DNA from: Parcubacteria group bacterium GW2011_GWA1_56_13
GTDB taxonomy: Bacteria; Patescibacteriota; Minisyncoccia; Phycocordibacterales; Phycocordibacteraceae
DNA: 64,000 bases
Direction of reading: 5' to 3'
Assembly (NCBI GenBank): GCA_001004905.1
Contig: LCRY01000002.1
Location: 1,559 to 65,558, forward strand
The translations under genes were made by a program, and so were the position numbers. The number at the start of each line of letters is the position of its first letter. Within the stretch, counting starts at the first letter, position 1. The notes under the pieces are model-generated. The model made no database searches, was not told the origin of the DNA, and was given only the letters and a program-made list of their open reading frames with translations. Of the stretch, positions 6,690 to 55,102 are shown piece by piece.

Positions 6690-6770
6690 TGAAACTTATT
6701 CTTGTAACCCCGGTACCACAACCTCGCTACGCTCAGTTGGTTACGGGGCAGGCTGGTGGCAAAATTGAAT

Positions 6771-7628
6771 ATGCGTGATAAAAAATTGATTTTAGTAACA
6801 GGCGGGGCGGGGTTCATTGGCTCGCATCTCTGCGCCCGCCTGGCAAGGGATGGTCATCGCGTCATTTCTCTCGACAATTACTTTACCGGCAGCCGTGAAA
6901 ATCACATTGCGGGCGTGGATTATCGTGAGGGTCACACGAAGGACATCGAGAAGCACGTGAACGAGACACCCGATATTATTTTTCATCTGGGCGAATACTC
7001 GCGCGTCGAAAAGAGTCTTCAGGAGCCAGCACTCGTGTGGGACTTGAATAAAGACGGAACGTTCGGCGTGCTCGAATTTTGGCGCAAGCACGGCGGCAAA
7101 CTCATCTACGCTGGCTCCTCAACGAAATTCGGCGATGGAGGCCTCGGCCGTGATCAGAGTCCATATGCCTGGACGAAGGCCAGCAACACCGAGCTGGTCA
7201 GAAATTACAGCGCCTGGTACGCCCTACCGCACGCCATCACCTATTTCTATAACGTGTACGGTCCCGGGGAACGCTCTGGCACATACGGTACCGTCATCGA
7301 GATCTTCCGGCAGAAACAGCATGCGGGCGAACCGCTCACAGTAACGGCACCGGGAACGCAAAAACGAAACTTTACTCATGTTGACGACATCATCGAGGGT
7401 CTTCTGCTCGTCAGTGCGAACGGGATGGGGGATGACTTCGGCATCGGTGATGAACACGCATACTCGATATTGGAGGTCGCACGGCTATTCGGCGGCGATA
7501 TCGTCATGAAACCCTCCGCGCCAGGCAATCGCATGACTTCCGATATCGACGTCTCGAAAACACGCGCGCTCGGCTGGGCTCCGAAAAAGAAATTGGCCGA
7601 CTACATCGCGGAAGTTCGCAAGACATGA
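6771..7628 (+). CDS. NAD-dependent sugar-nucleotide epimerase/dehydratase (short-chain, extended SDR)
   Basis: LILVTGGAGFIGSHL Rossmann motif. Catalytic YAWTK (YxxxK). Track start 6756 is a GTG; ATG 6771 preferred. Confidence 0.85.
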   Translation: MRDKKLILVTGGAGFIGSHLCARLARDGHRVISLDNYFTGSRENHIAGVDYREGHTKDIEKHVNETPDIIFHLGEYSRVEKSLQEPALVWDLNKDGTFGVLEFWRKHGGKLIYAGSSTKFGDGGLGRDQSPYAWTKASNTELVRNYSAWYALPHAITYFYNVYGPGERSGTYGTVIEIFRQKQHAGEPLTVTAPGTQKRNFTHVDDIIEGLLLVSANGMGDDFGIGDEHAYSILEVARLFGGDIVMKPSAPGNRMTSDIDVSKTRALGWAPKKKLADYIAEVRKT

Positions 7629-8764
7629 AGCGGATACTCATTTTCTCTCTTGCGTACTACCCACACGTCGGCGGCGCCGAAGTGGCCGTGAAGGAAATCT
7701 CCGATCGAATGTCCGACATCGAATTCCACATGCTCACCCTGAATTTCGGTGCCGATGTGGCACAGGAGAAAATAGGGAATATTTTCGTGCATCGGGTCGG
7801 GAACGGGCACTCCTATCTCTCAAAGATACTTTTCGTGCCGCGCGCCGCGTATGCAGCGCGCGCGATGCATGCCACACTCCATTTTGACTGCTTGTGGGCA
7901 ATGATGAGCTACATGCTTTTTCCGATTGTGCTGCTGCGTTTTATGAGACTGAAAGTGCCATATCTGCTCACGCTCCAGGAAGGCGATCCTTGGGAACACG
8001 TGTTTTCACGATGGTTTATTCTTCCGCTACGACCGCTCCTCTCGATGGGATTCAGGCACGCGTCCGCCATACAGACCATTTCAACCTACCTTGCGCGGTG
8101 GGCGCGTCACATGGGTTTCGAAAAAGAGGTGGTCGTCATTCCGAATGGCGTAGACCTTGAGCGTTTTGCAAGGACGGCGCATCCATCGGTTATGACTGCG
8201 GGCACGCTGAATCTAGTGACTGCTTCGCGCTTGGTACGCAAGAACGCCATTGATGATGTGATCCGCGCTCTTGTACTTTTGCCGGAGAATGTGCAATTCA
8301 TAGTCTATGGCACCGGCCCCGACGAGGCGAAATTAAAAAAGCTTTCTCAGGAACTCAATGTTTCTGATCGCGTATTGTTCAAAGGATATATTCCGCATGC
8401 CGAATTGGCGCGCGCATTCGGGACGGCTCATATCTTCATCCGTCCCTCGCGTTCGGAGGGCATGGGCAACTCCTTCATCGAGGCGATGGCGGCCGGGCTG
8501 CCGGTCATTGCCACGCAGGAAGGCGGCATCGCTGATTTCTTATTCGATGAAAAGCGTGATCCCGATAAGGAGGCGACGGGGTGGGCGGTAGATAAGGACT
8601 CTCCGGAGCAAATAGCGTTCGCCGTTAAAGACATTATGACGAATCCAGGGAAAGTGGCGCGCGTGACGGCGAACGCATCTCGGCTCGTGCGCGAAAGATA
8701 CGGCTGGAATCTCATCGCCCGGCAGATGAGACAGGTATTCGACCAAGCGCTCGCCAGCCGCTAA
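7625..8764 (+). CDS. Glycosyltransferase family 4 (GT-B)
   Basis: E-x7-E region RPSRSEGMGNSFIEAMAAGLPVIAT. ATGA overlap with upstream gene. Confidence 0.85.
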   Translation: MKRILIFSLAYYPHVGGAEVAVKEISDRMSDIEFHMLTLNFGADVAQEKIGNIFVHRVGNGHSYLSKILFVPRAAYAARAMHATLHFDCLWAMMSYMLFPIVLLRFMRLKVPYLLTLQEGDPWEHVFSRWFILPLRPLLSMGFRHASAIQTISTYLARWARHMGFEKEVVVIPNGVDLERFARTAHPSVMTAGTLNLVTASRLVRKNAIDDVIRALVLLPENVQFIVYGTGPDEAKLKKLSQELNVSDRVLFKGYIPHAELARAFGTAHIFIRPSRSEGMGNSFIEAMAAGLPVIATQEGGIADFLFDEKRDPDKEATGWAVDKDSPEQIAFAVKDIMTNPGKVARVTANASRLVRERYGWNLIARQMRQVFDQALASR

Positions 8765-8773
8765 ACTGCCCGT

Positions 8774-9781
8774 ATGAAGCTCGTTATCGCGACACCGCTG
8801 TATCCGCCCGACATAGGCGGGCCGGCGACGTACGTAAGGCTTCTTGAGGACGGGCTGCCCAAAAACGGCATTGAGGTTGACGTAGTGAAATTCAGCGATG
8901 TCCGGCGCCTGCCGAAACTCATCCGCCATTACGTGTATTATCGGCGCGTCCTTCGCGTAGCGCGCAGCGCCGACGCGGTGCTCGCGCTCGATCCGGTCTC
9001 GGTCGGATTGCCCGCGATGAAGGCGGCGCAGAAAGCGGGGAAGCCCTTTGTGGTGAAGATCGTCGGCGATTACGCCTGGGAGCAGGGAGTGCAGCGGTTC
9101 GGCGTCACGCAGGAGCTTGATGCATTCGTGCAGAAAAGACAATCCTCCTGGTTCGTACGCCGGCTGCAGGCGATAGAGAAAAGCGTTGCTTTCGCTGCAG
9201 ATAAGGTCATCGTACCGAGCCATTATTTGCAGCACATCGTTGCGGCGTGGGGCATCCCGGAAGAAAAAATATCCGTGATACACAACGGCATCGAACTTCC
9301 GGAGCGCATACCGGAACGCCAGAAAAAGGAGGGAAAATTCCTCATCGTGTCAGCTGGCCGGCGCGTTCCCTGGAAGGGCTTCGAAGCAATCGAGCGCGTT
9401 GCGCAGAAACACGCACACTGGCACGTCTATATCGCTTCGGGCCTGCCGCGGGACGAGGCTCTCGGCTGGATAAAAGCCGCGGATGTTTTCGTGTTAAATT
9501 CACACTACGAGGGGCTCTCGCACGTGCTCATCGAGGCAATGGTAATCGGAACGCCGGTCATCGCGACGAACGCAGGGGGCAATGCGACGCTCGTCGTAGA
9601 CGGAGAGACGGGACTTCTCATACCTCCGGCAGACGACGCTTCGCTGGAGCGGGCGCTTATCGCGGTGGAGCACGATCCCGCGGCGGCGAAGAAGCGCGCT
9701 CGCGCCGCACAAAAACAAATGAATGATTTCTCAGTCCTGCATATGCTCTGGACGACGACGGAGCTTTTAAAAAAACTATGA
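8774..9781 (+). CDS. Glycosyltransferase family 4 (GT-B)
   Basis: NSHYEGLSHVLIEAMVIGTPVIATNAGG. Confidence 0.85.
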   Translation: MKLVIATPLYPPDIGGPATYVRLLEDGLPKNGIEVDVVKFSDVRRLPKLIRHYVYYRRVLRVARSADAVLALDPVSVGLPAMKAAQKAGKPFVVKIVGDYAWEQGVQRFGVTQELDAFVQKRQSSWFVRRLQAIEKSVAFAADKVIVPSHYLQHIVAAWGIPEEKISVIHNGIELPERIPERQKKEGKFLIVSAGRRVPWKGFEAIERVAQKHAHWHVYIASGLPRDEALGWIKAADVFVLNSHYEGLSHVLIEAMVIGTPVIATNAGGNATLVVDGETGLLIPPADDASLERALIAVEHDPAAAKKRARAAQKQMNDFSVLHMLWTTTELLKKL

Positions 9782-10923
9782 AAGTCATCTTCATTTCGAA
9801 TGACCCCACGATATTCGACGCCACAAGTGCTGTCCGCGCACGTATGCGCGCGTATGCCGCCCTGATGGCAGAACTTCATATCGTTTCCGCCGCCGGCCTT
9901 TCCGCGCGTGAAGAGCACGAAGGGAACCTACATCTCTATCCGGTGCGCGGATGGAAACTCTTCCGCGTGAGCGCGCTCGCGAAGCGGGCACACGCGCTCA
10001 TACTTGAAAAAGGGATCGAAATTGTTTCTGCGCAAGACCCTTTCGAGCACGGCCTTGCGGCGCTTCGAGCCGTGCGCGGCACGAGCGCGAAACTGCATAT
10101 TCAAGTGCACACGGATTTCCTGTCCCCGTGGTTCATTCGGAGCGGCAACTGGCGTTCCCCGCGCGTGCGCATGCCGCTCTTGAATCGCTATCGTCGGGAC
10201 ATCGCTGACCGCGTTCTGCCCGCGGCACATGGCATTCGCGTCGTTTCAGAACGGGTGAAGCGGTCGCTTGCCGCGCGCTATGGCAGCCGCATTCCCGAGC
10301 CCGCCATGATACCGGTCGCGGTTGATCCGGCCGTTCCCGAAGCGGTCCGGTTGCCGGCGCATCCGGGATTTACGTTCATACTTATTGCGGTCGGCAGGCT
10401 CGAACCGGAGAAACGGGTCGAGGATATTCTGGCGGCTCTGAAACTGGTCGTGCCACATTACCCGATGGCGGGACTGTTCATCATCGGGGAAGGGCGCGAG
10501 AAGAATCGGCTCCAACGTATGGTCAACCGCCTCGATCTCTCGAACAATGTGATTTTTGTCGAAGGATGGCTCCCGCCCGCGCAGGCCTGGGGAATGATGC
10601 GGAGCGCGCATGCCTTCATCCAGGCGAGCGCCTATGAGGGCTACGGTCGCACGCTCATCGAGGCGGCGCTCGCGAGGGTCCCTATCATCACGACCGACGT
10701 CGGCATTGTGGGAGAAGTATTCAAGGGATACGAAGAAGTACTCTCGGTACCGGTTGCCGATCCGACGGCGCTGTCGCTCGCCATCGTCGGGCTCATCGAG
10801 GATAATGCGGTCCGACAGGAGCTGCCGATCCGCGCCGAAGCCGCCGCCCGCGCGCATCTCGCGACTGTCGGCAATGTACCGGCTCGCGTTGTTGCCGACC
10901 TTGCCCGCGTCCTCGCGCCATGA
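9778..10923 (+). CDS. Glycosyltransferase family 4 (GT-B)
   Basis: SAYEGYGRTLIEAALARVPIITTDVG. ATGA overlap. Confidence 0.8.
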   Translation: MKVIFISNDPTIFDATSAVRARMRAYAALMAELHIVSAAGLSAREEHEGNLHLYPVRGWKLFRVSALAKRAHALILEKGIEIVSAQDPFEHGLAALRAVRGTSAKLHIQVHTDFLSPWFIRSGNWRSPRVRMPLLNRYRRDIADRVLPAAHGIRVVSERVKRSLAARYGSRIPEPAMIPVAVDPAVPEAVRLPAHPGFTFILIAVGRLEPEKRVEDILAALKLVVPHYPMAGLFIIGEGREKNRLQRMVNRLDLSNNVIFVEGWLPPAQAWGMMRSAHAFIQASAYEGYGRTLIEAALARVPIITTDVGIVGEVFKGYEEVLSVPVADPTALSLAIVGLIEDNAVRQELPIRAEAAARAHLATVGNVPARVVADLARVLAP

Positions 10924-11843
10924 AACTACTCGTCGTCACGCAGGCGGTCGATGTAGAAGACCCCGTGCTCGGGTTTTTCGTGCGCTGGATAGAAGAGTTC
11001 GCGAAGCATGCGGAGAACATCGAAGTCATTTGCCTCCGGGAAGGAGCGCACGCGTTACCGGCCAATGTCCGCGCGCATTCGCTCGGCAAATCCTCCTTCG
11101 CCAAGGCCCAGCAGGGCATAGGAACGCGCTTACGGTATGTGTTCAGATTTCTCTCGCTTGTGTGGCGGCTTCGTCGCGACTATGACGCCGTTTTCGTGCA
11201 CATGAATCCGGAATATATCGTACTAGGCGGCCTTTTTTGGCGGCTATTGCATAAGCGCATTGCGCTCTGGTATACGCACAAGAGCGTCGATTTGAAACTG
11301 TGTGTCGCGGAACTTCTTTCAAACATTATTTTTACAGCCTCAAAAGAGAGCTTCCGGCTCAAAAGCAGGAAGGTGCGCGTGATCGGGCATGGTATCGACA
11401 CTGTCTTCTTCACCCCCGACCCGAGCGTCGCGCGCGGCGACTGGTTGCTCTCGGTTGGGCGGCTCATGCCGAGCAAGCGGCACGACCTCGCCATTCGCGC
11501 GGCAGCAGGGGATGGTAAGGAGCTACGTATCGTTGGCGATGGGCCCGAGTGGGACCATCTTGAAGCGCTTACTCAGGAACTCGGTGCGCGTGTCCAATTT
11601 CTGGGAAGCCTGGATCAATCGAAACTGCGCGACGAATATCGTAGAGCCGCTTTTCTTATTCACACGAGCGAGACGGGGAGTCTCGACAAGGTAGTCCTCG
11701 AGGCCCTCGCGTGCGGACTGCCCGTCCGTACCAACGACCCGGCGCTTAAAGCGCTTGAGAGCGAAACCTTCGCGTACGTTCGGAAGTATCACTCGCTTGG
11801 GCGCCTAATTCCCGCTATGCTTCAGATATTTCAGATGCCATGA
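10920..11843 (+). CDS. GT4-like glycosyltransferase (short)
   Basis: HTSETGSLDKVVLEALACGLPV C-terminal GT-B motif. 307 aa. Confidence 0.65.
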   Translation: MKLLVVTQAVDVEDPVLGFFVRWIEEFAKHAENIEVICLREGAHALPANVRAHSLGKSSFAKAQQGIGTRLRYVFRFLSLVWRLRRDYDAVFVHMNPEYIVLGGLFWRLLHKRIALWYTHKSVDLKLCVAELLSNIIFTASKESFRLKSRKVRVIGHGIDTVFFTPDPSVARGDWLLSVGRLMPSKRHDLAIRAAAGDGKELRIVGDGPEWDHLEALTQELGARVQFLGSLDQSKLRDEYRRAAFLIHTSETGSLDKVVLEALACGLPVRTNDPALKALESETFAYVRKYHSLGRLIPAMLQIFQMP

Positions 11844-12466
11844 CCTACCAAGCCCAAGTCGGCAAATCGCATTATTCAGGCAAAGCGTACCGCTCTCTGG
11901 AGCGCTGGACTTCCTACTGGCACCAAATGGACCTGATGCGTCGCGCGAGCCCGCAAACGCTCCTGGAGATCGGTGTTGGCGATGGTGTGGCGGCACGCGA
12001 ACTGTCCGCCGCGGGCATATCCGTGACCACGGTGGATATCGCGGAGGACCTGGGTCCGGATGTCGTTGGTTCTATCACCGCACTGCCGTTTCCCGACAAA
12101 TCATTTGATGCGATCCTCGCGGCGGAAGTATTGGAGCATATTCGTTTTCAAGACGTACCGCAGGCGCTCTCGGAGATGCGCCGCGTCGCCCGCACGCAGG
12201 TCCTCATATCCCTTCCGCATCCCGGATACGTCTTTTCGCTTATCGCGAAAGTGCCTCTTCTGCGGCGCTTCTCGCTCCTCTTCAAGGTCCCCTTTTTCTG
12301 GAAGGAGCACTGTTTTAATGGCGAACATTATTGGGAATTGGGCAAGAAAACATTCTCTCTTCGCACATTCATGCGGCACGCGGAGAAGGCAGGACTCGAA
12401 CTCCTCGTTTCCCGTTCGTATGCGGATGATCCTTCCCACCGCTTTTTCCTTTTTAAAATCATATGA
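11840..12466 (+). CDS. Class I SAM-dependent methyltransferase
   Basis: LLEIGVGDGVAARELSAAGISVTTVDI (motif I). DKSFDAILAAEVLEHI. Confidence 0.75.
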   Translation: MTYQAQVGKSHYSGKAYRSLERWTSYWHQMDLMRRASPQTLLEIGVGDGVAARELSAAGISVTTVDIAEDLGPDVVGSITALPFPDKSFDAILAAEVLEHIRFQDVPQALSEMRRVARTQVLISLPHPGYVFSLIAKVPLLRRFSLLFKVPFFWKEHCFNGEHYWELGKKTFSLRTFMRHAEKAGLELLVSRSYADDPSHRFFLFKII

Positions 12467-13107
12467 GACGCTATTCTCTTTTCCACACGCTCCGCTACCT
12501 GTACGCCGGACAATCGTTCGCTCGCATTCTAATGAATTACGAACTTGCCCGGCACACTCTCCGGGGACGGGTCCTGGATGTGGGCGGAGGCAGAAATCCG
12601 GACTACTACGCGTATCTTCGCCGCGCGGGCGATGTATCCGTGGAAGTCATCGACGGAGCCCTTACAGGGATTGATTTTGAAAAAGACCCGCTGCCATACG
12701 GGAATCGTCATTTCGACACTGTCCTTTTATGCAACGTACTTGAGCACGTCTACGACCATCAGTTTCTTTTGAAAGAAATACGGCGTGTACTCGCGTCTCA
12801 CGGCACGCTCCTAGGGTTCGTGCCATTCTGGACTGGCTACCACCCCGATCCGCACGACTATTTCCGTTATACGGCTGAGGCCCTGCGGCGCGCGCTCTTC
12901 GATGCAGGATTCACCAATGTGGATATCCGCAGCGTCGGCAGAGGTCCTCTGCTTGCGAATTTCAACACCATTGTCCTTTCACTTCCGCGCTTCGCACGGC
13001 CGCTTGCGTATTGCGTATACGCAACGTTCGATGCGCTGTTCGTGCGGCTTCGTCCGCGCAGCATGGAACGCAATCCGCTTGGCTATCAATTCAACGCGCA
13101 TGTATAA
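12463..13107 (+). CDS. Class I SAM-dependent methyltransferase
   Basis: VLDVGGGRNPDYYAYL. HFDTVLLCNVLEHV. Confidence 0.75.
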   Translation: MRRYSLFHTLRYLYAGQSFARILMNYELARHTLRGRVLDVGGGRNPDYYAYLRRAGDVSVEVIDGALTGIDFEKDPLPYGNRHFDTVLLCNVLEHVYDHQFLLKEIRRVLASHGTLLGFVPFWTGYHPDPHDYFRYTAEALRRALFDAGFTNVDIRSVGRGPLLANFNTIVLSLPRFARPLAYCVYATFDALFVRLRPRSMERNPLGYQFNAHV

Positions 13108-14107
13108 AGTATTCATTCCAGAACCTCTTCCGAACATACCGCAGGTGGCGTTCATTGCCGACCGTTCGCAGGAGGGGAACAAGCTTTTTCAGACGATACC
13201 GCCCGATGCCTATAAAAATATCTTTGCCCGCGTACTCGACGCTACGCAAGCTGACATCGTCATAGCGCCGCATGAATACGTTCAATTACGCAACCATCCT
13301 TCATATCTGGCGCGCTGCCAAGACACAGCCCGCATGGCACATATTCCGCTTCTTGTTTCCGCCTATCAGGACGATGCGCGTCCGATTGCACTGCCGGGAA
13401 CATTCGTTCTCCGCCCCTCCGCCTATCGCACCGCGCTTTCCGCGCGCGAGATACTCATGCCGGCATACGTCGAAGACGTCGGGGCAGCATGGGGGATCGA
13501 GCCATTGCCAAAAGGAGAAAAGCCGATCGTCTCGTTTGTCGGGAAGGCCGACTTTTCGAGTTTGGGCGAGCGGATACGGTACGTCATCCGCAATTATGCG
13601 GTGCGCCACGGACCGCGTAAGCAGGGCATATACTTCAGACGCCACGCCCTCTCAAGTTTGGCGGCCGACCCGCGCATCGTGCTCAACACCATCGTCCGGA
13701 AGCGCTATTCGGCGCACAGAAACACCATCGAGGTTCCGCCGGCACAGGCACGGGCGGAATACATACGCTCGATCCAGCATGCACATTTCACGCTCGCTCC
13801 GGGCGGCGACGGCAATTACTCGCTACGCTTTTACGAAACGCTTGCGCTCGGACGGATACCCATTCTCATCGACACAGACATGCCCCTCCCGCTTCAGGAC
13901 CGCATCGACTATAACGCTTGCATCGTGCGCGTTCCCTGGCGGGACATAGCGCACATTGGCGACTATGTCATTCGTTTCTTTAATGACCGGAGCGAGAATT
14001 CTTTCATCGAGGCCCAGAAAAACGCGCGCAACGTCTTTGGATCCTACTTGTACATGCCGCGCTTTCTTGAGCATCTATTCGCCGACATACTGCCCAAGCG
14101 CGGTTGA
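13100..14107 (+). CDS. Exostosin (GT47)-like glycosyltransferase
   Basis: Start moved to ATG 13100 (MYKVFIPE). FTLAPGGDGNYSLRFYETLALGRIPILIDTD matches the exostosin C-terminal motif pattern (P-x-G-D-x-x-S-x-R-x-x-E-x-L-x-x-G-x-I-P-v). Confidence 0.5.
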   Translation: MYKVFIPEPLPNIPQVAFIADRSQEGNKLFQTIPPDAYKNIFARVLDATQADIVIAPHEYVQLRNHPSYLARCQDTARMAHIPLLVSAYQDDARPIALPGTFVLRPSAYRTALSAREILMPAYVEDVGAAWGIEPLPKGEKPIVSFVGKADFSSLGERIRYVIRNYAVRHGPRKQGIYFRRHALSSLAADPRIVLNTIVRKRYSAHRNTIEVPPAQARAEYIRSIQHAHFTLAPGGDGNYSLRFYETLALGRIPILIDTDMPLPLQDRIDYNACIVRVPWRDIAHIGDYVIRFFNDRSENSFIEAQKNARNVFGSYLYMPRFLEHLFADILPKRG

Positions 14108-14162: not shown

Positions 14163-15584
14163 ATGATTCAGTTCGTGCTGCTTTGCGCAGGTGTTACGGC
14201 AATTCTATTCTTCTCATCGTTCCATTTGTTCGACAGCCCGGAAACATGGATGGACGAAGGACTCATCATACAGTCGGCGGTCGGACTTCTTCACACTGGA
14301 GAGGCCGCATTGCCCGTGGCGCCGGGCATTTTCGAGCCGGCGTGGTACATTACCACAGGTTTTCCTCTGACGCTCCCGCTTGCGGCAGCATTCGCGTTTT
14401 TCGGCGTGTCGCTTGAAGCCGCCCGCCTGGTGATGCTGGCGTTCCTATTATGTTTTTATGCGGTTCTCTTTCTATATGCACGCAGAGCCATAGGCGGCAC
14501 TGCCGCCTGGTTTGGGTTCTTTCTCCTTGTCTTTTTCGCTCCAATTTACGGCAATGGCCGCAACGTGCTCGGCGAAATTCCCGGGCTTTTGTTCATGCTC
14601 CTTGCATTCCTGCCGCTCTTGTATGGAGGGGAACTGACACGTACGAAAGTCCTGTGCATCGGCGCGGGAGCGGGCCTTGCGGTTGCCACAAAACCGATAT
14701 TCATTCTGTTCCTGCCAGCGTTGCTCGTTACGGCCCTCCTGCACCGCCGTGAATTCTCGTTGAGGACAGCGTTTCCGTTCGGTGCGCTTGGCGTTGCCGT
14801 TCCCCTTATCGTTTGGTTCTTTCTCCAGTTTGACGGGGTGGGAATTTCGCAAGTGCTTGCCATATACGCCAATCCGCACGCCGTCGACATCAAAAGCGCT
14901 ATCGCCGCTAATGTGCACCGGCTGTTCGCAGAAGGACAGCCGCTCTATTTCTTTATGGCGCTCGTTGCCTGGTGTGCCAGTTACGCCGTGCGCCGAATAC
15001 GCAGGGAAGCCGTTTCGTTCGCCGAAGAATCGCTCCTGTTCTTTAGCGTATTCGTGGCGTTCGCGTATCTGCGCACTGCGGGGTACTACCGTTATTTCTT
15101 TCCCGCCCAGATTTTCGTGCTCTTGTATCTTCCGCAGTCGGTCCTCTACCTCGCCCGGGGCCGTGCTCGCATGGTTTCCCTCGCCGTCATCGCCTGTCTC
15201 TGCGGACTCGTTCTGTTCCAGGCGTACGAAACGGCATTCCGTTCGTGGACGGCGGTACATTATAATTCGACGCGCACTGAAACGCTCGCGCGATATGTCG
15301 CCGGGCTCCCCGCCAAAGCGAAGATCTTCGTGTATCAGGCGCCCGAGGCCGTACCGTTCCTTTCGGGGCGCGCTGTGTACCAATATGCGGAGATCACTCC
15401 GACCATTCGCTTCGGAGAAGCATACGTTCCGCTCATCCTGTCGGGGGAAGTGCCGCGCATCATCACTCGCGCGGACCTCTTTGAAGCGCATCGGACCGAC
15501 CTCTTTGCGCACTACGTACTCTCCGGGGAAGCGGACGGCTACGCTATGCTGGTCCATACGGCCCTCTCGGGGCAATCACGATGA
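14163..15584 (+). CDS. GT-C fold integral-membrane glycosyltransferase (PMT/ArnT-like, family 39/83-type)
   Basis: Start moved to ATG 14163 (MIQFVLLCAGV). Multiple TM helices. First-loop DE motif SPETWMDEGLIIQSA, typical of polyprenyl-phosphate-sugar-dependent GT-C enzymes. Confidence 0.55.
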   Translation: MIQFVLLCAGVTAILFFSSFHLFDSPETWMDEGLIIQSAVGLLHTGEAALPVAPGIFEPAWYITTGFPLTLPLAAAFAFFGVSLEAARLVMLAFLLCFYAVLFLYARRAIGGTAAWFGFFLLVFFAPIYGNGRNVLGEIPGLLFMLLAFLPLLYGGELTRTKVLCIGAGAGLAVATKPIFILFLPALLVTALLHRREFSLRTAFPFGALGVAVPLIVWFFLQFDGVGISQVLAIYANPHAVDIKSAIAANVHRLFAEGQPLYFFMALVAWCASYAVRRIRREAVSFAEESLLFFSVFVAFAYLRTAGYYRYFFPAQIFVLLYLPQSVLYLARGRARMVSLAVIACLCGLVLFQAYETAFRSWTAVHYNSTRTETLARYVAGLPAKAKIFVYQAPEAVPFLSGRAVYQYAEITPTIRFGEAYVPLILSGEVPRIITRADLFEAHRTDLFAHYVLSGEADGYAMLVHTALSGQSR

Positions 15585-16006
15585 GCACACCAACTTTTTT
15601 GCTCCTTATCCGATACGGCGTCGCCGGCATGACAGGTGCACTCATCCAGACAAGCACGCTGTACATATGGGTCGACGTATTCCACTTTGAGGATTGGTAT
15701 CTCGTCGGGGCGGTAGTCGGCTTTCACCTGGCGCTTCTTGCGACCTTTGCGCTCCAAAAATACTGGACGTTCCGTGACCGCGCGTACGCCGGGATACGAA
15801 GGCAATTCTTTTTCTACACAATCATCGCGCTCGCGAGTCTCGGGCTGAACATCCTGTTCCTGCACACGAGCAAGCTCTTTCTTGAGCGTCTCGGGTTCGA
15901 TTTCTTCCACGGCTGGTATCTGCTCGCGCAGGTTGGCAGTATCGCTATTGTCGCCGCCACGAGCTTCGTCGCGAATTATTCTCTGACGTTCCGCAGGCCT
16001 GTATGA
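15581..16006 (+). CDS. GtrA-family membrane protein (flippase accessory subunit)
   Basis: 141 aa, 4 TM. FLLLIRYGVAGMTGALIQTSTLYIW and KYWTFRD GtrA signature. Confidence 0.8.
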   Translation: MSTPTFLLLIRYGVAGMTGALIQTSTLYIWVDVFHFEDWYLVGAVVGFHLALLATFALQKYWTFRDRAYAGIRRQFFFYTIIALASLGLNILFLHTSKLFLERLGFDFFHGWYLLAQVGSIAIVAATSFVANYSLTFRRPV

Positions 16007-44236: not shown

Positions 44237-44847
44237 GCCCGGACGCCATCATTGTCTTTCCGGCAGGCATTGTCCCGCTCAACGACGTGAAAACCGAGTG
44301 GCGTAGCACCACATATGACGAGAATGACGCATTCGGCACACTCGGCGGCCACGATCGTGTGAGAGCTGCCGCACTTCTGGCACGGCGATATCCAACTGCG
44401 GCGGTTGTCACGACCTCTCACACGCTCGGGCGTCCTGCCCCAACGCTGGCTGACGTATACGAAAACGAGCTCATCGGACTCGGTGTAGCGCGTGAGCGCA
44501 TACTGAAAGAGGAGAGTTCTAACACAACGCGGGCAGGCCTCGTAGCCTCTCTCGAACTTGCAAGACGAAAGAGGTGGAAGCGCCTCTTGTTCGTTTCAAG
44601 CGGTTTCCATGTCCCACGCATCCGCGCGTTTCTGGAGCAAGAACACAACGACATTGACGTGAAATGCGCCGCTTCCGAACCGTTACTCTCGGCGGCAGAC
44701 CCCTCTTTTGCCGCGCAGTTCGCCGCGGTGCAGGACACACCCGCTTACAAAAAACGCCTGGTCTCCGAGGAGCGCGGCATTCAGGCGATCAAATCCGGGG
44801 ACTATCGTTCGGCGTCGGCAGAGGACAAACTGGAGCGCGAGGCGTAA
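44233..44847 (+). CDS. DUF218/YdcF-like protein
   Basis: Start ATG 44233 (ATGA overlap). IIVFPAGI. LLFVSSGFHVPR. Confidence 0.6.
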   Translation: MSPDAIIVFPAGIVPLNDVKTEWRSTTYDENDAFGTLGGHDRVRAAALLARRYPTAAVVTTSHTLGRPAPTLADVYENELIGLGVARERILKEESSNTTRAGLVASLELARRKRWKRLLFVSSGFHVPRIRAFLEQEHNDIDVKCAASEPLLSAADPSFAAQFAAVQDTPAYKKRLVSEERGIQAIKSGDYRSASAEDKLEREA

Positions 44848-46083: not shown

Positions 46084-46977
46084 ATGCATACTCCCGAACA
46101 TTCCGGTACGCGAGTGGTGACGGTTGACGGTTCAGACGTCATTGAGTGTACGGGGTGTGGTTTTAAACATGTGATGCCGCTTCCGACGCCTGAGGTACTT
46201 AAGACGTTTTATGAAGATGAATTTTATCAAGAAGAGCGAAAGGACTATTTTAAAGAAGTCGAGGAGGACAAAGACTGGTGGATGCTCACCTACAATCACT
46301 ATTATGATCTGCTTGAAAAGCATACGAAGGGCAGAAAACTACTTGATATAGGGTCAGGCCCAGGGCTGTTTTTGGAATGTGGTAATGCACGCGGGTGGCA
46401 GACACTCGGCTTTGAGCCGTCACCGCGAGCGGGTGAGTACGCGCGAAGTCTCGGTTGCGAAGTGGTGACGGACTTTTTTACCGCTGAACAGGCAAAGCGC
46501 TACGGCCCGTTCGACGCGATTACGCTCAACTTCGTTCTCGAGCATGTACCGAACCCGACAGAACTTATTGCGCAGGCGCGAAGCCTGCTCGCGCCGGGCG
46601 GCGTGCTCTTGGTCGTCTCACCGAACGATTTCAACCCGCTCCAGAAACTTCTGGTCGAGCATCATGGTTATACATCGTGGTGGGTTGTGCCGAAGCACCA
46701 CCTCAATTATTTCGATATCGAGTCGGCTTCCCGCCTTCTCGTATCCCGCGATATGGCGGTGATCGAGCGGGAAGCGACGTATCCCCTGGAGCTCTTTTTG
46801 CTCTCCGGCCGCAATTATGTGGAGCATCCAGAGCTTGGCAGAGTCTGCCACAGTGAACGCAAGGCGTTCGAGTCCGCTTTGTATCGCCATAAGAGCGACT
46901 TAATTCAGAAAATGTTTATTGATTGGGCGAAGCAAGGTATCGGGCGTGAAGTGGTCTCTATTAGCAAAAAAGGATGA
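46084..46977 (+). CDS. SAM-dependent methyltransferase with N-terminal zinc ribbon
   Basis: CTGCGFKHVMP. LLDIGSGPGLFLECG. Confidence 0.75.
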   Translation: MHTPEHSGTRVVTVDGSDVIECTGCGFKHVMPLPTPEVLKTFYEDEFYQEERKDYFKEVEEDKDWWMLTYNHYYDLLEKHTKGRKLLDIGSGPGLFLECGNARGWQTLGFEPSPRAGEYARSLGCEVVTDFFTAEQAKRYGPFDAITLNFVLEHVPNPTELIAQARSLLAPGGVLLVVSPNDFNPLQKLLVEHHGYTSWWVVPKHHLNYFDIESASRLLVSRDMAVIEREATYPLELFLLSGRNYVEHPELGRVCHSERKAFESALYRHKSDLIQKMFIDWAKQGIGREVVSISKKG

Positions 46978-48164
46978 GAAAGAATAAATCTACAATGGAT
47001 TCAAAAAAATGGGTCGTGTGTCTTGGAGGAAGTGATTCAAAGATACCTATCATACAAGCTGTGCAAGACCGCGGTATGCGATGTGCAGTAGTGGATCATG
47101 ATTCAGACAGTCCGGCTAAGCGATACGCCGATTTATTTTTAAACATAAGTATTTTTGATTCGGTAGCCATCATAGATGCGTTGAAGCAAGCTAATATACT
47201 TCATGCAACCGCCTTTGTATTTGCGTACACGTCGTTACAAGAAGGTCAATTATCAGCAAGCCGATTGACTAAGGGACTTAATATTCCTATTAACTTAAAA
47301 GAATCATGGTTGGAGAATTCTTGGAATAAAATAGCATTCAAAAGATTTTGTAGTGCAACGGGCATCACGACTCCAGCGTTTACAGAATCTCTCCAAGGTG
47401 GTGGCACACACATGTTTTTGGAAAGATATGGTAAAGCGGTGTGCAAGCCAATAGAGGGAGGTGTCGGATCAAAGTCTGTTTTTTTTGTTGATATGTTGAA
47501 CGATGAGCAGGTTATTGATAATTCGTGTTTTCTAGAGCAATATATAGACGGTGATCTTTATTCGTATAACGGCATTGCAATAAAAGAGGAAGTGCCGTTT
47601 TCTCTAGTATTGCGTAAATATACACGCACAGACGGTAAAAATATCGCTGGATTTTCTTCGCGCGTGGACAGAAAGCTAGGAGCGCGTATCATTAATCAAT
47701 GTAAAGTCGCCGCTTTATCTATGCATCTACGTGATACGTTTTTCCATTTTGATATTCTCGTACGAGATGGTGTCAGCTATTTCATTGATTTTGGTCTTCT
47801 TTTGGATTGCCGAGTTAACGAGTTGTTGCTATATGGCGGTTTTAATGCGTATGGGTATATTTTGGATGAAGTATTAAACCTTCCTACCATAGAACACGTA
47901 AGATATACTAAAAACGAAACTGAAACAGCCATAGCTTTCGTGTATCCGATTCAAGAAGGTCGTCTGCGCAGTCTACCAACTTCTCTCTCCACCGTACTTC
48001 CTGGGTGCTCTGCATACATCTGGAAAAAAGAAGGAGACTTTGTCAAAGTTGAAGGAACAGTGGAAGATGAAATTGGGTATGTTGTGGGCCGTGATGTCGA
48101 TTGGTCTAAGGTAAAAAATGTGGCGGGCATGCTCGAAGAAGAGATTATTATTGAACCGGTATGA
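46974..48164 (+). CDS. ATP-grasp-fold ligase
   Basis: VCKPIEGGVGSKSVFFV ATP-grasp glycine-rich loop. Rossmann-like N-terminus VVCLGGSDSKIPIIQA. In a low-GC island. Confidence 0.55.
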   Translation: MRKNKSTMDSKKWVVCLGGSDSKIPIIQAVQDRGMRCAVVDHDSDSPAKRYADLFLNISIFDSVAIIDALKQANILHATAFVFAYTSLQEGQLSASRLTKGLNIPINLKESWLENSWNKIAFKRFCSATGITTPAFTESLQGGGTHMFLERYGKAVCKPIEGGVGSKSVFFVDMLNDEQVIDNSCFLEQYIDGDLYSYNGIAIKEEVPFSLVLRKYTRTDGKNIAGFSSRVDRKLGARIINQCKVAALSMHLRDTFFHFDILVRDGVSYFIDFGLLLDCRVNELLLYGGFNAYGYILDEVLNLPTIEHVRYTKNETETAIAFVYPIQEGRLRSLPTSLSTVLPGCSAYIWKKEGDFVKVEGTVEDEIGYVVGRDVDWSKVKNVAGMLEEEIIIEPV

Positions 48165-49390
48165 ATGGTAAGAAACATATATTAATGATTGGCGGAGGCC
48201 TCCAGGAGGTCGAGGCAGTTCGACAGCTTAAGGCCGCTGGATGGACTGTCGGCGTCTCGGATCGGGATTCTGATTGCCCGTGCGCAAACATTGCTGATTA
48301 TGTATTAGAGGCAGACGGTCGCGATCCAGAACGAATATTGCAAGAATTGTTGATTAGAACACCTGACAATCTCCCACGGGTAGTATTTACACTGACAGAA
48401 CTGACCACAACGGTGGCGATATTATTACACGCACTAAAACTGCCAGCTCCATCGATCCTATCGGTAGTGGTGAGTCAATCGAAAGCATTATCGAAAGATT
48501 GTTGGCTACGTAAGGGAGTACGGACGCCGAACGGGGTTGTTGTTTCTGATGCCCAGGGATTGGCATCTATCCCCACACGAAGCGCACCGCCCTATGTTAT
48601 AAAACCAGATGTTTCTTCTGGCGGTAGAGGGGTTGTTTTAGTAAAGTCTGCAGACAAATTATCCGAAGCCGTACGTAATGCTATTGACTGTTCAGCAAAT
48701 AGCCGATGTGTAGTTGAAGAATACATACACGGGACTATTCACGATGGTAATGCATATTTTTCCAATGGCATATTTGTTCCTCTAAGTATTTCTGATCGGT
48801 TCACCGGTGATTCAATTGCGGTCGAATCTGGTGCAATTTGCCCCTCATGTTTGCCACCGAACAAGCAAAAAGATTTTTTCTTTCTTTTTGAAGAATCTTG
48901 TCGGGCATTGGGAATTGAACAGGGTCCCGTTAAAATTGACGCGTTATACGATGGAAAAAATTTTTACGTATTAGAGGTCGCAGCACGTTTGCACGGTCCA
49001 CGCGGTAGTTTGTATTTGATCCCCGCCAGTTTTGGTATATCACTATGTGTACCGGTATTTGATGCGATTCAGAGCAATAGCATGGATATAGAATGGGATG
49101 CGACACGCGTAAAGCAGTTTTGTGTATACGAGGATATCCGAATTGCCGAGCGAGGTGTAATAATAAGTATTGAAGGTATTGAGATTGCTAAACATGAAGA
49201 GGGTATTGTAGATATTCAACTATTAAAAAATATAGGCGATGAGATACGCACACCACACGATTCAAACGAAGTTACTGGGTTTATTTTTGCCGTTGGAAGT
49301 AACGAAATAGAATGTAGAAAACGGATAAAGACCGCTCATGATGTGTTGCACATACGTCTCGTGAATAGGCCGCATACTGAGCTTAATTAA
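48161..49390 (+). CDS. ATP-grasp-fold ligase
   Basis: HILMIGGGLQEVEAV. YVIKPDVSSGGRGVVLVKS. Low-GC island. Confidence 0.6.
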   Translation: MNGKKHILMIGGGLQEVEAVRQLKAAGWTVGVSDRDSDCPCANIADYVLEADGRDPERILQELLIRTPDNLPRVVFTLTELTTTVAILLHALKLPAPSILSVVVSQSKALSKDCWLRKGVRTPNGVVVSDAQGLASIPTRSAPPYVIKPDVSSGGRGVVLVKSADKLSEAVRNAIDCSANSRCVVEEYIHGTIHDGNAYFSNGIFVPLSISDRFTGDSIAVESGAICPSCLPPNKQKDFFFLFEESCRALGIEQGPVKIDALYDGKNFYVLEVAARLHGPRGSLYLIPASFGISLCVPVFDAIQSNSMDIEWDATRVKQFCVYEDIRIAERGVIISIEGIEIAKHEEGIVDIQLLKNIGDEIRTPHDSNEVTGFIFAVGSNEIECRKRIKTAHDVLHIRLVNRPHTELN

Positions 49391-49400: not shown

Positions 49401-50567
49401 ATGAAACGTATCGCAATTGTACAAATCGCCCCTTCCGATGTTAAGGGAAGATTAAGGGACTACAATGTAATTCGTCCACTGCAGGAAAGCGGTTTATTTG
49501 ACCATATCGTGTTGGCATATCCTGACCTTCCTGGGGCGGAAATTATCGATGATTTGGCCAAGGAATGGGGAATCGAGTCATTTCGAGGCGATGTAATGAA
49601 TGTGACCCGACGCATTTTGAACTGTGCAAAAAAATACGATGCGCATACTGTGGTGCGAGTGTTGTCGTGGTATTTTTTTATTGATATTGATCTTGTCAAA
49701 CGAATGGTTCGATTTCTCGAAGAAAGCGATTCTGACTACGTGCCTCTCCCTCGTGATTTTGACATCCGGTTTGGCGCTGATGTTACACAAACTCGATTTT
49801 ACGAAAAAATGGATTCTTATTTTAATAAGGACTCGACTCTATTAAAACTATATGCATTTAATCCGTGGGGATTCTGCGAGCTGCACCAGGAATTATTCAA
49901 AGTCAAGGAATTCAAAGATGTTCCAACATATACCGCAAATTATTTTAAACAATTGAGACAGACTATGGATCTAGTCTGGCCAGAACAATGGGATTCACAA
50001 GACACGCCCATAGATCCATACAGAATGGTAATAAAATATAAAAAAGGAAGCGGGAAGCATGCGTTAGATCTTGCTTGCGGTTATGGAATGGGGAGTAATC
50101 TATTGCACGAGAATGGTTTTTGCGTATTGGGTGTAGATATAGATCCTGCTGTTATTACTACGTGCAAAAAGAGATATGAAGAAAACAGCAAGCTTTCATT
50201 TTTATGTGAAGATTATCGCAATCTCTCTTTTCAGAAGGAATTTGACATCGTAACTTCAATCCATACTATGGAGCATGTTCCCGATGATTCCGATTTTCTC
50301 AGTCATTGTCATTTATGGTTGAGAAAAGGCGGCACGCTATTTTTAGAAGTACCTCTTCTGATGAAGAGACCATTTTATGGAATTGGCGAGCCAATTAACC
50401 CAAAGCACGTGAAGGAATACGATCTGAAGGCTTTAAAGACTCTAGTGTCAAAGTATTTCCATATTATCAAAGTATTCGGAGTTACTCGCGGGTATTATGT
50501 TGAGGAGTGCAAAGCGAGAAACGCGGCATTAATTATAGCCACAAAGACAAGAACGGACGGACTGTGA
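49401..50567 (+). CDS. Fusion protein: N-terminal cytidylyltransferase-like domain + C-terminal class I SAM methyltransferase
   Basis: N-terminus MKRIAIVQIAP..VIRPL resembles SpsF-type cytidylyltransferases. C-terminus LDLACGYGMGSNLL...FDIVTSIHTMEHVPDD is a methyltransferase. Low-GC island. Confidence 0.5.
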   Translation: MKRIAIVQIAPSDVKGRLRDYNVIRPLQESGLFDHIVLAYPDLPGAEIIDDLAKEWGIESFRGDVMNVTRRILNCAKKYDAHTVVRVLSWYFFIDIDLVKRMVRFLEESDSDYVPLPRDFDIRFGADVTQTRFYEKMDSYFNKDSTLLKLYAFNPWGFCELHQELFKVKEFKDVPTYTANYFKQLRQTMDLVWPEQWDSQDTPIDPYRMVIKYKKGSGKHALDLACGYGMGSNLLHENGFCVLGVDIDPAVITTCKKRYEENSKLSFLCEDYRNLSFQKEFDIVTSIHTMEHVPDDSDFLSHCHLWLRKGGTLFLEVPLLMKRPFYGIGEPINPKHVKEYDLKALKTLVSKYFHIIKVFGVTRGYYVEECKARNAALIIATKTRTDGL

Positions 50568-50579: not shown

Positions 50580-51386
50580 ATGACTGATCTTGCCCGTAAA
50601 GCCCAAGAGATACGAAGTCATGCGCTGTGCATGATTCATGCAGCGCGTTCTGGACATCCGGGAGGTTCACTTTCTGTCGCGGATATGCTCGCTGTACTCT
50701 ATTTCGATGAACTCAATCTGCGTCCACGATCTCCGCGCTGGAACAACCGGGATAGATTTATTCTTTCCAAGGGGCATTCGTGTCCGGCGCTCTATGCCGC
50801 GCTTGCGATGCGCGGCTATTTCCCGAAGAAGGAGCTCCTCGGCCTGCGCAAAATCGACCATTTCCTCGAAGGGCATCCCGATGTAAAGATTCCCGGCGTT
50901 GATGCGCCCTCCGGCTCGTTAGGCATGGGGCTTTCGCAGGGCCTCGGCATGGCGCTCGGCGGACGGTATCTAAAAAAGAAATTCCGCACGTATGTCCTCC
51001 TCGGCGATGGCGATATGCAAGAGGGAAACACCTGGGAAGCGTTCATGGCCGCGGGATTCCATAAGGTCGATACACTCGTCGCTTTACTGGATGCAAATGG
51101 CATTCAGGGTGACGCACGCGTTGAAACTCAGATGGACTACGAGCCAGTTCTAGAGAAAGTGCGTGCGTTCCGTTGGCATGTTGAGGAGATTGATGGTCAC
51201 GACGTACGGCAGATACGGCGCGCGCTCAAGAATGCACGTGCCCAAAAAGGGAAGCCCTCGTTCATCCTCGCGCGTACAGTGAAAGGCAAGGGAGTGTCTT
51301 TTATAGAAGACCAACTCGCTTGGCATGGGAGTGTGACGATGAAGGACGAAGAACTCGCGCAGTCGCTTGCAGAATTACGCGTATGA
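50580..51386 (+). CDS. Transketolase, N-terminal (ThDP-binding) subunit
   Basis: HPGGSLSVADMLAVLYF. SKGHSCPALYAALA. GDGDMQEGNTWEA. Confidence 0.9.
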   Translation: MTDLARKAQEIRSHALCMIHAARSGHPGGSLSVADMLAVLYFDELNLRPRSPRWNNRDRFILSKGHSCPALYAALAMRGYFPKKELLGLRKIDHFLEGHPDVKIPGVDAPSGSLGMGLSQGLGMALGGRYLKKKFRTYVLLGDGDMQEGNTWEAFMAAGFHKVDTLVALLDANGIQGDARVETQMDYEPVLEKVRAFRWHVEEIDGHDVRQIRRALKNARAQKGKPSFILARTVKGKGVSFIEDQLAWHGSVTMKDEELAQSLAELRV

Positions 51387-52357
51387 AAAAAACCAAACTC
51401 CAATTCTGGAAGAAGGGTGAGAATGTTTCGTTACGCGAAGCTTTCGGGCGTATATTGGTACATCTCGGTAAAATGCGCGATGATTTCGTGCTCTTTGATG
51501 CGGACATCGCCGGCGGTACGGGAGCGAAGCCGTTCGTGACGGCGTTCCCCAAGCGAGTGATGCAATTTGGCATTGCAGAGCAGAATATGATGGCGGCCGC
51601 AGGCGGTTGTGCGGACATTGGCATCATCCCGGTCGTGAGCACCTTTGCCGCGTTCGGCGCAATGCGCGCGCACGAACAATTCCGCACCGCTATTGCGTAT
51701 CCGAACCGCAACGTGAAGCTCTGTTGCTCGCATCTGGGCGTTGATACGGGACCTGACGGCGCGACCGCGCAAATGCTCGAGGACCTTGCGGTGATGCGCT
51801 CGATTCCGGGCGTTACCGTCGTCGTGCCGGCCGATGCCAATGAGCTTATGCTCGCTTTCGACGCTGTGCTCAACCATACCGGCCCAGTATATATGCGCAT
51901 CGGACGCAGTCCCACTCCGGTTATTTCTGATGCGAAGCAGCCGTTTGTCATCGGTAAGGCGACGCGCATGTGTGAGGGCACTGATGCTACTATCGTCGCA
52001 TGTGGCGTTATGGTGGCACGTGCGTTTGTCGCGGCCGACGTGCTCAAAAAACAGGGCATTCATGTCCGTGTCGTGAATCTCTCGACCGTCAAACCGCTCG
52101 ACGAGCGGGAGCTCCGCGCGGCGGCGCGAGAGACGGGAGCAATTCTTACTGCCGAAGACCATAATGTTCGCGGCGGCATGGGAAGCGCGGTTGCCGAGTT
52201 TTTCGCCGAGCATCACCCGGTGCCGATGAAACTGCTCGGCGTTCAGGACCGCTTCGGCAAGTCGGGCGAGGCGGCGGAACTTGCGGAGAAATACGGACTG
52301 ACCGCGCGGCACATCATACAAGAGATTAAAAAACTTATCCGCCGGAAGCATTCCTAA
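51383..52357 (+). CDS. Transketolase, C-terminal (pyrimidine-binding) subunit
   Basis: Start ATG 51383, ATGA overlap. MQFGIAEQNMMAAAGG. 324 aa. Confidence 0.9.
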   Translation: MKKTKLQFWKKGENVSLREAFGRILVHLGKMRDDFVLFDADIAGGTGAKPFVTAFPKRVMQFGIAEQNMMAAAGGCADIGIIPVVSTFAAFGAMRAHEQFRTAIAYPNRNVKLCCSHLGVDTGPDGATAQMLEDLAVMRSIPGVTVVVPADANELMLAFDAVLNHTGPVYMRIGRSPTPVISDAKQPFVIGKATRMCEGTDATIVACGVMVARAFVAADVLKKQGIHVRVVNLSTVKPLDERELRAAARETGAILTAEDHNVRGGMGSAVAEFFAEHHPVPMKLLGVQDRFGKSGEAAELAEKYGLTARHIIQEIKKLIRRKHS

Positions 52358-52361: not shown

Positions 52362-53105
52362 ATGCATACTCAAAAATCACGGGTTGTCTTCGTTACTGGC
52401 GCGAGCCGCGGCATCGGGCAGAAGGTCGCCAAGATGCTCCTTGTGGCGGGGTATCGCGTCGCCTGCGGATATCGTACTCATAAAGACGGTGCACTTGCAC
52501 TTGCGCGCACATACCCCGAGGCATTCCCGGTACGCTCGGATGTAAAGAGCCGCGCATCAATAAAGAAAGCGCTTACTGCGACAAAACGCCGCTTTGGGAA
52601 GAGTCCTGATATCCTCGTCAACAACGCCGGCATTGCCGATGAACGTCCGCTCGAGTCCATCACGGACGCGCAATGGGACCATCTGCTCGCAGTAAATTTG
52701 CGCGGTCCGTTCATTGTCGTGCAGGAGGCATTGCCCGCCATGCGCGCGCAGAAGTGGGGAAGGATAGTGAACATCGTTTCCATAGGAGGGCAGTGGGGCG
52801 GTATGCGACAGGTGCATTACGCCGCGGCAAAGGCGGGGCTCATCAATTTCACCCGCTCCCTGGCGAAGTTGTACTCGCGCGAAGGTATCACCAGCAATGC
52901 GGTTTCTCCCGGGCTGGTAGAAACGGATATGAGTAAAAAGGAAATGCGCTCAAAGGCGGGGAAACAAAAAGCCGCACAGATTCCGATCGGCCGACTTACC
53001 AAACCGGAAGAAATTGCCGCAGCGGTTATGTTTCTCATATCAGACGACGCCGCCTCCATTACCGGCCAGACGCTGAATGTGAACGGCGGAATGCTGTTCT
53101 CCTAG
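52362..53105 (+). CDS. SDR-family oxidoreductase (FabG-like)
   Basis: VFVTGASRGIGQKVAKML. YAAAKAGL. Confidence 0.85.
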   Translation: MHTQKSRVVFVTGASRGIGQKVAKMLLVAGYRVACGYRTHKDGALALARTYPEAFPVRSDVKSRASIKKALTATKRRFGKSPDILVNNAGIADERPLESITDAQWDHLLAVNLRGPFIVVQEALPAMRAQKWGRIVNIVSIGGQWGGMRQVHYAAAKAGLINFTRSLAKLYSREGITSNAVSPGLVETDMSKKEMRSKAGKQKAAQIPIGRLTKPEEIAAAVMFLISDDAASITGQTLNVNGGMLFS

Positions 53106-53110
53106 CATAT

Positions 53111-54319
53111 ATGAAGACCATTCTTATCCTCGGGGCCGGCAAGGAGCAGGTAAATGCCATCGCCCGCGCAAAGGAAAAGGGTATACGCACCGTTGTTCTT
53201 GACATGAACAAAGAGGCGGAAGGGGCTTTGTACGCGGATGAGTTTTACGCTATCAGCACGCGGGACATCCCCGCGATACTCGCGTTTCTTAAAACGTACA
53301 ACAAAAAGATAGACGGTGTCATGACCATAGCGAGCGATATTCCGCATTGTGTGTCGGCTGCCGCGGAGTTCTTGGGCGTACCGCATATTTCGCTTTCTGT
53401 TGCGCAGGTATGCGTGCAGAAGTTTCGTATGAAAGAAACGCTTCAGGAGGGGGGCGTCCGCGTACCCGCGTTTGCTCCGGTCGATTCAGTCGAATCGCTC
53501 ATGGCCTTCATCAAGACGGTAGGGTATCCGGTCGTCATAAAGCCGGTGGACAATTCGGGCGCCCGGGGGGTTTTGCGGCTTAGTGAAGATATAGATGTGC
53601 CGTGGGCGTTCGAATACGCAAAAAAATATTCTTTTTCCGGCAACCTTATTGTGGAACAGTATATCGAAGGGCAGCAGATAAGCACCGAGGGCATCATGCA
53701 CGAAGGCATCTTTTATTGCACCGGCTTCTCCGACCGCAATTATGAGCGGATCGAAAAAACAGCGCCCTATCTCGTGGAAGACGGCGGAGATATCCCGTCT
53801 GCGTTAGATCCAGGCGAACAAGCGCTCGTCAAGGCAGAATTTGAGAAAGCGGTACGGGCGCTTGGTATAGACTGGGGCCCCGCTAAAGGAGACATGGTAC
53901 TCGGTAGGGACGGGAAAGCGTATGTGATAGAGGTGGCGGCAAGGCTTAGCGGCGGCAATTTTTGCTACGACAAGGTGCCGTGGTCGACCGGCGTTGACAT
54001 CGTCGACATACTTATTGACATGGCGGTCGGAAATTCCGTCGATGCAAAACGTTTTGTGCCGACCAAGGATATGGCGACTTCGCAGCGGTATTTTTTTCCT
54101 TTGCCCGGCACGATTAAAGAGATACGGGGGTTAGAGAAGGCCGAGCGCATGCCTCACGTCAAAAAAGTAGACCCGTGGGTGCAGGCGGGGGATGAAATCT
54201 CCGCCATCGTGAACCATCCATCTCGAGTCGGGTATGTCATTACCTGCGCGCCAACGCTCGCGGAGGCGGTGCAAGCGGCCGAAAGAGCAGTGCAATCCGT
54301 GGAATTTATCATGGAGTAG
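53111..54319 (+). CDS. ATP-grasp-fold ligase
   Basis: ILILGAGKEQVNAIARAKEKGIRTVVLD. VVIKPVDNSGARGVLRL. Confidence 0.65.
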   Translation: MKTILILGAGKEQVNAIARAKEKGIRTVVLDMNKEAEGALYADEFYAISTRDIPAILAFLKTYNKKIDGVMTIASDIPHCVSAAAEFLGVPHISLSVAQVCVQKFRMKETLQEGGVRVPAFAPVDSVESLMAFIKTVGYPVVIKPVDNSGARGVLRLSEDIDVPWAFEYAKKYSFSGNLIVEQYIEGQQISTEGIMHEGIFYCTGFSDRNYERIEKTAPYLVEDGGDIPSALDPGEQALVKAEFEKAVRALGIDWGPAKGDMVLGRDGKAYVIEVAARLSGGNFCYDKVPWSTGVDIVDILIDMAVGNSVDAKRFVPTKDMATSQRYFFPLPGTIKEIRGLEKAERMPHVKKVDPWVQAGDEISAIVNHPSRVGYVITCAPTLAEAVQAAERAVQSVEFIME

Positions 54320-54325
54320 AAATAT

Positions 54326-55102
54326 ATGCATAAGAAACTTGGCGTCGCAACGCGCTTTTACGGGCTCACCGAGGGGGATGTACAGCGCCTCGCGGCGTGG
54401 GTGGATGCGGCTCGTGCGGTTGTTCCCGCATCAAGCATATTTGTGGCCATTAACAGTGAAGCCGACCGTTCAGGGAGTCAGGATTTCATGCGCGAACACT
54501 ATCCGGACGTTGTGACGTTTCCGGTCACACCGTGGGGAAGGGTGGTGCAGGCGCCAAATGCTCTTCTTCTGAAGTGTGCGGAACGGCAAGTGAGCCACCT
54601 GCTGTTCGCGAGCACCGAATACCCGGTGACCCAGTCGCTCCTGTCACTGCTCCAGTCCCACTCCGATGATCAAACGCTCGTGGTCGGCGCACGTCTCGCG
54701 GGCCATGATTTTAAGACGCCGCCGGGCGGGCGTGTGCTCGTATCAGGCGCAAGCGGCCTCCAGATTCCCTGGAACACGTGCGCTTTGTGGTCAACTGGGC
54801 ACCTCATCCACACCGGCTTCGTGTTAACCGCTGACGCGGTGCATGATCCCGATAATGCGGGAATGGAAGAGATGGGGACCATCGCCGCGCAGCAGATATT
54901 ATGGCCGGGCAGGGCGGCGGCCAAGCTCGTCGCTCCGCGCGCGGGCGACTTAGTCCCGAATACCCACGGGTGGACTATCCAGCGCCGTGAACGGCATGCG
55001 CGCATTCTGGAGTCAAAAAACTCCCGTTCCGTGACGCAACTGGAGCGTCTCTCGTTATCTGCTCCCGAGGTCTGCCATATCGACGATGCCTTAACTAGTT
55101 AG
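54326..55102 (+). CDS. Hypothetical protein
   Basis: 258 aa. Codon usage consistent with neighbours. No recognisable motif. Confidence 0.3.
   Translation: MHKKLGVATRFYGLTEGDVQRLAAWVDAARAVVPASSIFVAINSEADRSGSQDFMREHYPDVVTFPVTPWGRVVQAPNALLLKCAERQVSHLLFASTEYPVTQSLLSLLQSHSDDQTLVVGARLAGHDFKTPPGGRVLVSGASGLQIPWNTCALWSTGHLIHTGFVLTADAVHDPDNAGMEEMGTIAAQQILWPGRAAAKLVAPRAGDLVPNTHGWTIQRRERHARILESKNSRSVTQLERLSLSAPEVCHIDDALTS

Follow-up and report, generated by a model that had tools for sequence, protein, structure and literature searches.

The window analysed in this study, 64,000 nucleotides long, comes from GW2011_GWA1_56_13, a groundwater member of the Kaiserbacteria/Parcubacteria (Candidate Phyla Radiation, CPR) with a tiny genome. 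Positions 6771-59469 hold a run of 54 glycan genes (c01 to c54; 52,699 bp, 17,388 codons), counted from gene calls, precomputed Pfam matches and the chain of open reading frames (ORFs). Nearly all of them received glycan-building family assignments. A preliminary description had proposed that this organism with a small genome carries a very large locus for glycan assembly. This is supported; nearly all of the family assignments held up in profile searches, and the co-directional run was found at the place described. Its end at 55102 left out a 69-aa ORF, an ABC exporter and a Wzy_C-TPR gene; the latter two were correctly said to follow, as confirmed by Pfam, NCBIfam and profile comparison. The locus is not strictly single-stranded as had been stated, because 53 genes lie on the plus strand and one, the FkbM methyltransferase gene c13 (17579-18424), on the minus strand. 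Only 26 of the 53 gene junctions are 4-nt overlaps, therefore the claim that almost all genes are joined by ATGA overlaps was overstated. The packing is nevertheless very tight, with 4 other overlaps, 16 gaps of at most 20 nt and 7 gaps of 21-100 nt.

The sequence of the locus recurs in at least five independent assemblies with at least 99.9% identity, and the few differences between them are mostly N-filled scaffold gaps. Therefore, the locus is not a chimera. Breaks in GC content, which at 6.7 and 55 kb would have pointed to a chimera, are absent from the cluster borders and lie inside it (low at 27.6-35.8 kb and 47-50.6 kb, high at 36-41 kb). Among the low-GC genes, GC3 is 0.43 (c22), 0.39 (c26), 0.42 (c32), 0.34 (c44), 0.35 (c45) and 0.38 (c46). 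In the following, a bare percentage behind a gene refers to its ortholog in the closest relative.

Glycosyltransferases and sugar-nucleotide enzymes

The conserved left end is formed by the NAD-dependent sugar epimerase/dehydratase c01 (6771-7628, 285 aa; Pfam Epimerase/GDP_Man_Dehyd; 83%) and the GT4 enzyme c02 (7625-8764, 379 aa; Pfam Glyco_transf_4 and Glycos_transf_1), a generic GT4 by NCBIfam with orthologs of 52-64% in relatives. Orthologs of c01 (56-65%) lie directly 3' of TrwB/ComEA in L026, L029, L031 and L044. Further GT4 enzymes assigned by Pfam are c03 (8774-9781, 335 aa; 73%), c04 (9778-10923, 381 aa; 72%), c05 (10920-11843, 307 aa; Glycos_transf_1 only; 59%), c18 (22430-23590, 386 aa) and c19 (23587-24663, 358 aa), the last two again generic GT4 by NCBIfam. 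Instead of seven GT4 enzymes we thus found six, plus one TagB/TagF-like GT-B protein, c21.

Both expected GT2 enzymes are present (Pfam Glycos_transf_2) and resemble polyprenyl-phosphate-sugar synthases, each adjoining a GtrA-like protein (Pfam GtrA_DPMS_TM). In NCBIfam, c11 (16003-16713, 236 aa) comes closest to AglJ, Dol-P-hexose transferase and PpgS without reaching any of the cut-offs, and the top matches of c16 (19898-20623, 241 aa) are AglJ/Dol-P-hexose; the GtrA-like proteins are c10 (15581-16006, 141 aa, a small membrane protein) and c14 (18459-18857, 132 aa). The two or three GT-C/GT47-like enzymes correspond to one exostosin-like GT47 (c08, 13100-14107, 335 aa; Pfam Exostosin_GT47; 68%) and two GT-C proteins, c09 and c17. 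The former (14163-15584, 473 aa; Pfam PMT_2) has about 11 transmembrane (TM) segments by hydropathy, and the closest relative carries a GtrA+PMT_2 fusion. Gmd (c20, 24660-25688) passes the cut-off of TIGR01472 (419.9 bits, cut-off 415). Besides Gmd there are two SDR epimerases/dehydratases, as described: c01 and c15 (18877-19893, 338 aa; Pfam Epimerase, weak LegB-like match), the latter with a -10-like site, TATACT, 12 nt 5' of its start.

No Pfam match at E<=1 was obtained for c17 (20631-22433, 600 aa), which has about 10 TM segments and a C-terminal soluble domain. In a Foldseek search with its AF2 model (pLDDT 83), every significant match was a GT-C enzyme (STT3, AftA, DPY19, PglB, ArnT). 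The family comprises 850 representative homologs, with members also fused to GtrA, GT2 or methyltransferase. Judged by its modelled fold, c17 is a GT-C glycosyltransferase of an undescribed family.

Methyltransferases

Eight SAM methyltransferases were recognized by Pfam rather than at least nine, and two instead of three are of the FkbM type (Methyltransf_21): c13 (281 aa) and the genome-specific c22 (27588-28238, 216 aa), neither with an ortholog in the closest relative. The others are the class I enzymes c06 (11840-12466, 208 aa; 72%) and c07 (12463-13107, 214 aa), both Methyltransf_23/11, c12 (16710-17582, 290 aa), c23 (28235-28954, 239 aa; 52%), the genome-specific c43 (46084-46977, 297 aa; no ortholog in the closest relative) and c46 (49401-50567, 388 aa), where the NCBIfam methyltransferase domain (residues 195-320) follows an extra N-terminal domain. 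Of the two zinc ribbons described, the N-terminal one in c12 is a clear 4-Cys ribbon (C3, C6, C24, C27), while c43 has a single CxxC only.

Acyl module

The low-GC cassette c26-c32 is genome-specific. The proposed ACP-acyl module was confirmed in it: an AcpS-type 4'-phosphopantetheinyl transferase (c26, 30971-31330, 119 aa; Pfam ACPS; TIGR00556 56.1 bits, cut-off 45.35; no ortholog in the closest relative), an acyl carrier protein (ACP) with a DSM serine motif (c28, 32361-32591, 76 aa; Pfam PP-binding 20.9 bits, cut-off 20.8), a MaoC-type (R)-hydratase/dehydratase (c29, 32588-33013, 141 aa; Pfam MaoC_dehydratas and NCBIfam) and a FabG-like SDR ketoreductase (c30, 33006-33719, 237 aa; Pfam adh_short/KR, NCBIfam FabG-like below cut-off). 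Between them, c27 (31327-32364, 345 aa) encodes an FkbH-domain protein with HAD-IIIC phosphatase and acyltransferase-like parts (TIGR01686 FkbH 302.9 bits, cut-off 146.65; Pfam NIF and weak GNAT), which is predicted to load a glyceryl unit onto the ACP. From these family matches, the module is more precisely an FkbH glyceryl-ACP cassette. The low-GC cassette continues with an AAC(3)-fold amino-sugar N-acyltransferase (c31, 33721-34506, 261 aa; Pfam Antibiotic_NAT, NCBIfam AAC(3) below cut-off, PDB matches to AAC(3) and FrbF with E down to 3e-16) and ends with an aminopeptidase-like protein of the DUF4910/DUF2172 type that carries an HTH_47 domain (c32, 34503-35804, 433 aa; Pfam; no ortholog in the closest relative). 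Upstream lie c24 (28951-29934, 327 aa; 65%), a putative PLP enzyme of the PLP_IMCC1989 family (PF27889; weak TIGR04422 match, 39.8 bits, cut-off 75), and c25 (29931-30947, 338 aa; 50%), a FemAB/Acetyltransf_6-like acyl- or aminoacyl-transferase (Pfam Acetyltransf_6, weak TIGR04421 match).

Nonulosonic-acid genes

The preliminary description listed a complete nonulosonic-acid pathway, which the genes c33-c42 bear out in part. The PseC aminotransferase c37 (40070-41212, 380 aa) passes its cut-off (TIGR03588 479.4 bits, cut-off 423.5). Below their cut-offs are the PseB-like UDP-GlcNAc 4,6-dehydratase c33 (35864-36880, 338 aa; TIGR03589 397 bits, just under 407.75; 77%; -10-like site TAGAAT 9 nt 5' of the start), the NeuB/PseI-family synthase c42 (44859-46079, 406 aa; Pfam NeuB and SAF; NeuB 268.7 and PseI 249.8 bits) and the CMP-sugar-type cytidylyltransferase c39 (42543-43319, 258 aa; Pfam CTP_transf_3; weak KdsB and PseF matches). 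Four of the six canonical steps of the pseudaminic-acid pathway are recognizable, and profile searches of the locus recognized neither PseH nor PseG.

The same stretch encodes a GFO/IDH/MocA sugar dehydrogenase (c34, 36883-37851, 322 aa; Pfam; weak UDP-GlcNAc 3-dehydrogenase match), a DegT-family sugar aminotransferase (c35, 37871-39076, 401 aa; Pfam DegT; PseC model 225.7 bits, below cut-off) and a GT-B-fold protein nearest to UDP-GlcNAc 2-epimerase/NeuC (c36, 39073-40050, 325 aa), a candidate for a nucleotide-sugar hydrolase/epimerase step. A class III, GSA-aminomutase-like aminotransferase (c38, 41209-42540, 443 aa; Pfam Aminotran_3, NCBIfam below cut-off; 84%) is of a type that recurs with NeuB/CTP_transf_3 in L091. 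The aldo-keto reductase c40 (43316-44236, 306 aa; Pfam Aldo_ket_red) has a counterpart in the relative L092, where the c39 and c40 types form a 556-aa CTP_transf_3+AKR fusion. The DUF218 protein c41 (44215-44847, 210 aa; Pfam DUF218 53.4 bits) is of a type that adjoins NeuB in two other loci, L091 and L092, and forms a fusion with GFO in L093.

The above-mentioned c21 (25669-27591, 640 aa) has a C-terminal TagB/TagF-like GT-B domain (Pfam Glyphos_transf 30.5 bits) and weak matches to the NCBIfam BFO_1060 family and surf_polysacc. BFO_1060/Tanf_01245, which carry a TagB-like domain, are Pse/Leg transferases according to genetics (PMC5420450). Homologs of 611-631 aa adjoin CTP_transf_3-NeuB-NeuC in L023 and also occur in L088, the locus of the closest relative, and L090. 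Hence c21 is a candidate transferase for a CMP-activated donor, a nonulosonic acid.

Right-hand genes, export and ligation

All three ATP-grasp ligases were found, c44 (46974-48164, 396 aa) with a weak assignment (faint Pfam ATP-grasp_3, no NCBIfam match); c45 (48161-49390, 409 aa; Pfam ATP-grasp_3/4) is a PylC/Ddl-like amide ligase by weak NCBIfam matches, and c50 (53111-54319, 402 aa; Pfam ATP-grasp_3/4 and CPSase_L_D2; 72%) a further amide ligase. The split transketolase was likewise confirmed: NF004559 (627 positions) matches the N-terminal subunit c47 (50580-51386, 268 aa; Pfam Transketolase_N) at positions 16-279 with 297 bits and the C-terminal subunit c48 (51383-52357, 324 aa; Pfam Transket_pyr/Transketolase_C) at 307-625 with 299 bits. 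In place of these two subunits, the closest relative encodes one TPP enzyme. An SDR oxidoreductase (c49, 52362-53105, 247 aa; Pfam adh_short; 71%) follows. The conserved soluble protein c51 (54326-55102, 258 aa) has no match in Pfam or PDB, and orthologs of 71-72% in L015 and L089. The 69-aa ORF c52 (55188-55397), called in three assemblies, is the only locus gene with a strong Shine-Dalgarno motif (AGGAGG, 5-6 nt 5' of the start); a 46% match lies elsewhere in the closest relative's locus.

Between c52 and c53, a terminator-like hairpin (55427-55446, plus strand; 8-bp stem, 6 GC pairs, T-rich tail) was identified by consensus match only. The ABC half-transporter c53 (55492-57258, 588 aa) combines TMD and NBD (Pfam ABC_membrane and ABC_tran) and is of the MsbA/PglK/HepA exporter type, with HepA (341 bits), MsbA (302) and PglK (224) as top NCBIfam matches, all below cut-off. 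It is predicted to be a flippase or exporter, and its orthologs in relatives (68-77%) lie 5' of Wzy_C. The last gene, c54 (57310-59469, 719 aa), encodes an O-antigen-ligase-like Wzy_C membrane domain with C-terminal TPR (Pfam Wzy_C and TPR), with a 4-nt overlap between its stop codon and the start of murB. Its profile matches the WaaL structure 7TPG (E=6.7e-5); its invariant residues include R220, R246, R267, R292 and H339-N340. According to hydropathy and the positive-inside rule, the protein has 13 TM segments, the N-terminus inside and the TPR outside. Homologs number more than 3399, and identity is 66-99% for the 120 best ones listed. This gene is conserved at the right end and stands directly 5' of MurB in every relative seen.

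Discussion

It was proposed that the cluster is wedged between murC and murB and splits them. In Kaiserbacteria relatives, however, glycan genes already adjoin each of the two flanks. The left side reads MurD-MurC-RsmI-TrwB-(ComEA)-epimerase-GT4 and the right side (ABC)-Wzy_C-TPR-MurB-SecA, and the closest relative has a 46-kb orthologous locus with the same flanks and 38 of the 54 genes in common. An insertion separating the two mur genes was therefore rejected, and the arrangement is ancestral within the lineage. Relatives carry different versions of the locus at the same chromosomal site, but its ends are conserved. The left end consists of the epimerase and GT4 genes, and the right end of the ABC exporter gene and the Wzy_C-TPR ligase gene that is coupled to murB. 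About 16 of the 54 genes are genome-specific and largely coincide with the low-GC cassettes.

The locus is best read as serotype-like and modular, serving a surface glycan that is lipid-linked, flipped and ligated. From the gene content, this glycan is predicted to be methylated, N-acylated and of the nonulosonic-acid type, in line with the preliminary description. It would be exported via the ABC half-transporter and handled by the Wzy_C-TPR protein. A protein or S-layer was proposed as its acceptor; alternatively, it may be attached to the cell wall or a lipid. The system is of an already known kind, and the locus is a large yet recognizable instance of it. In summary, a CPR bacterium with a tiny genome uses 54 consecutive genes, about 53 kb of DNA, to build a sugar chain with heavy decoration on its surface.

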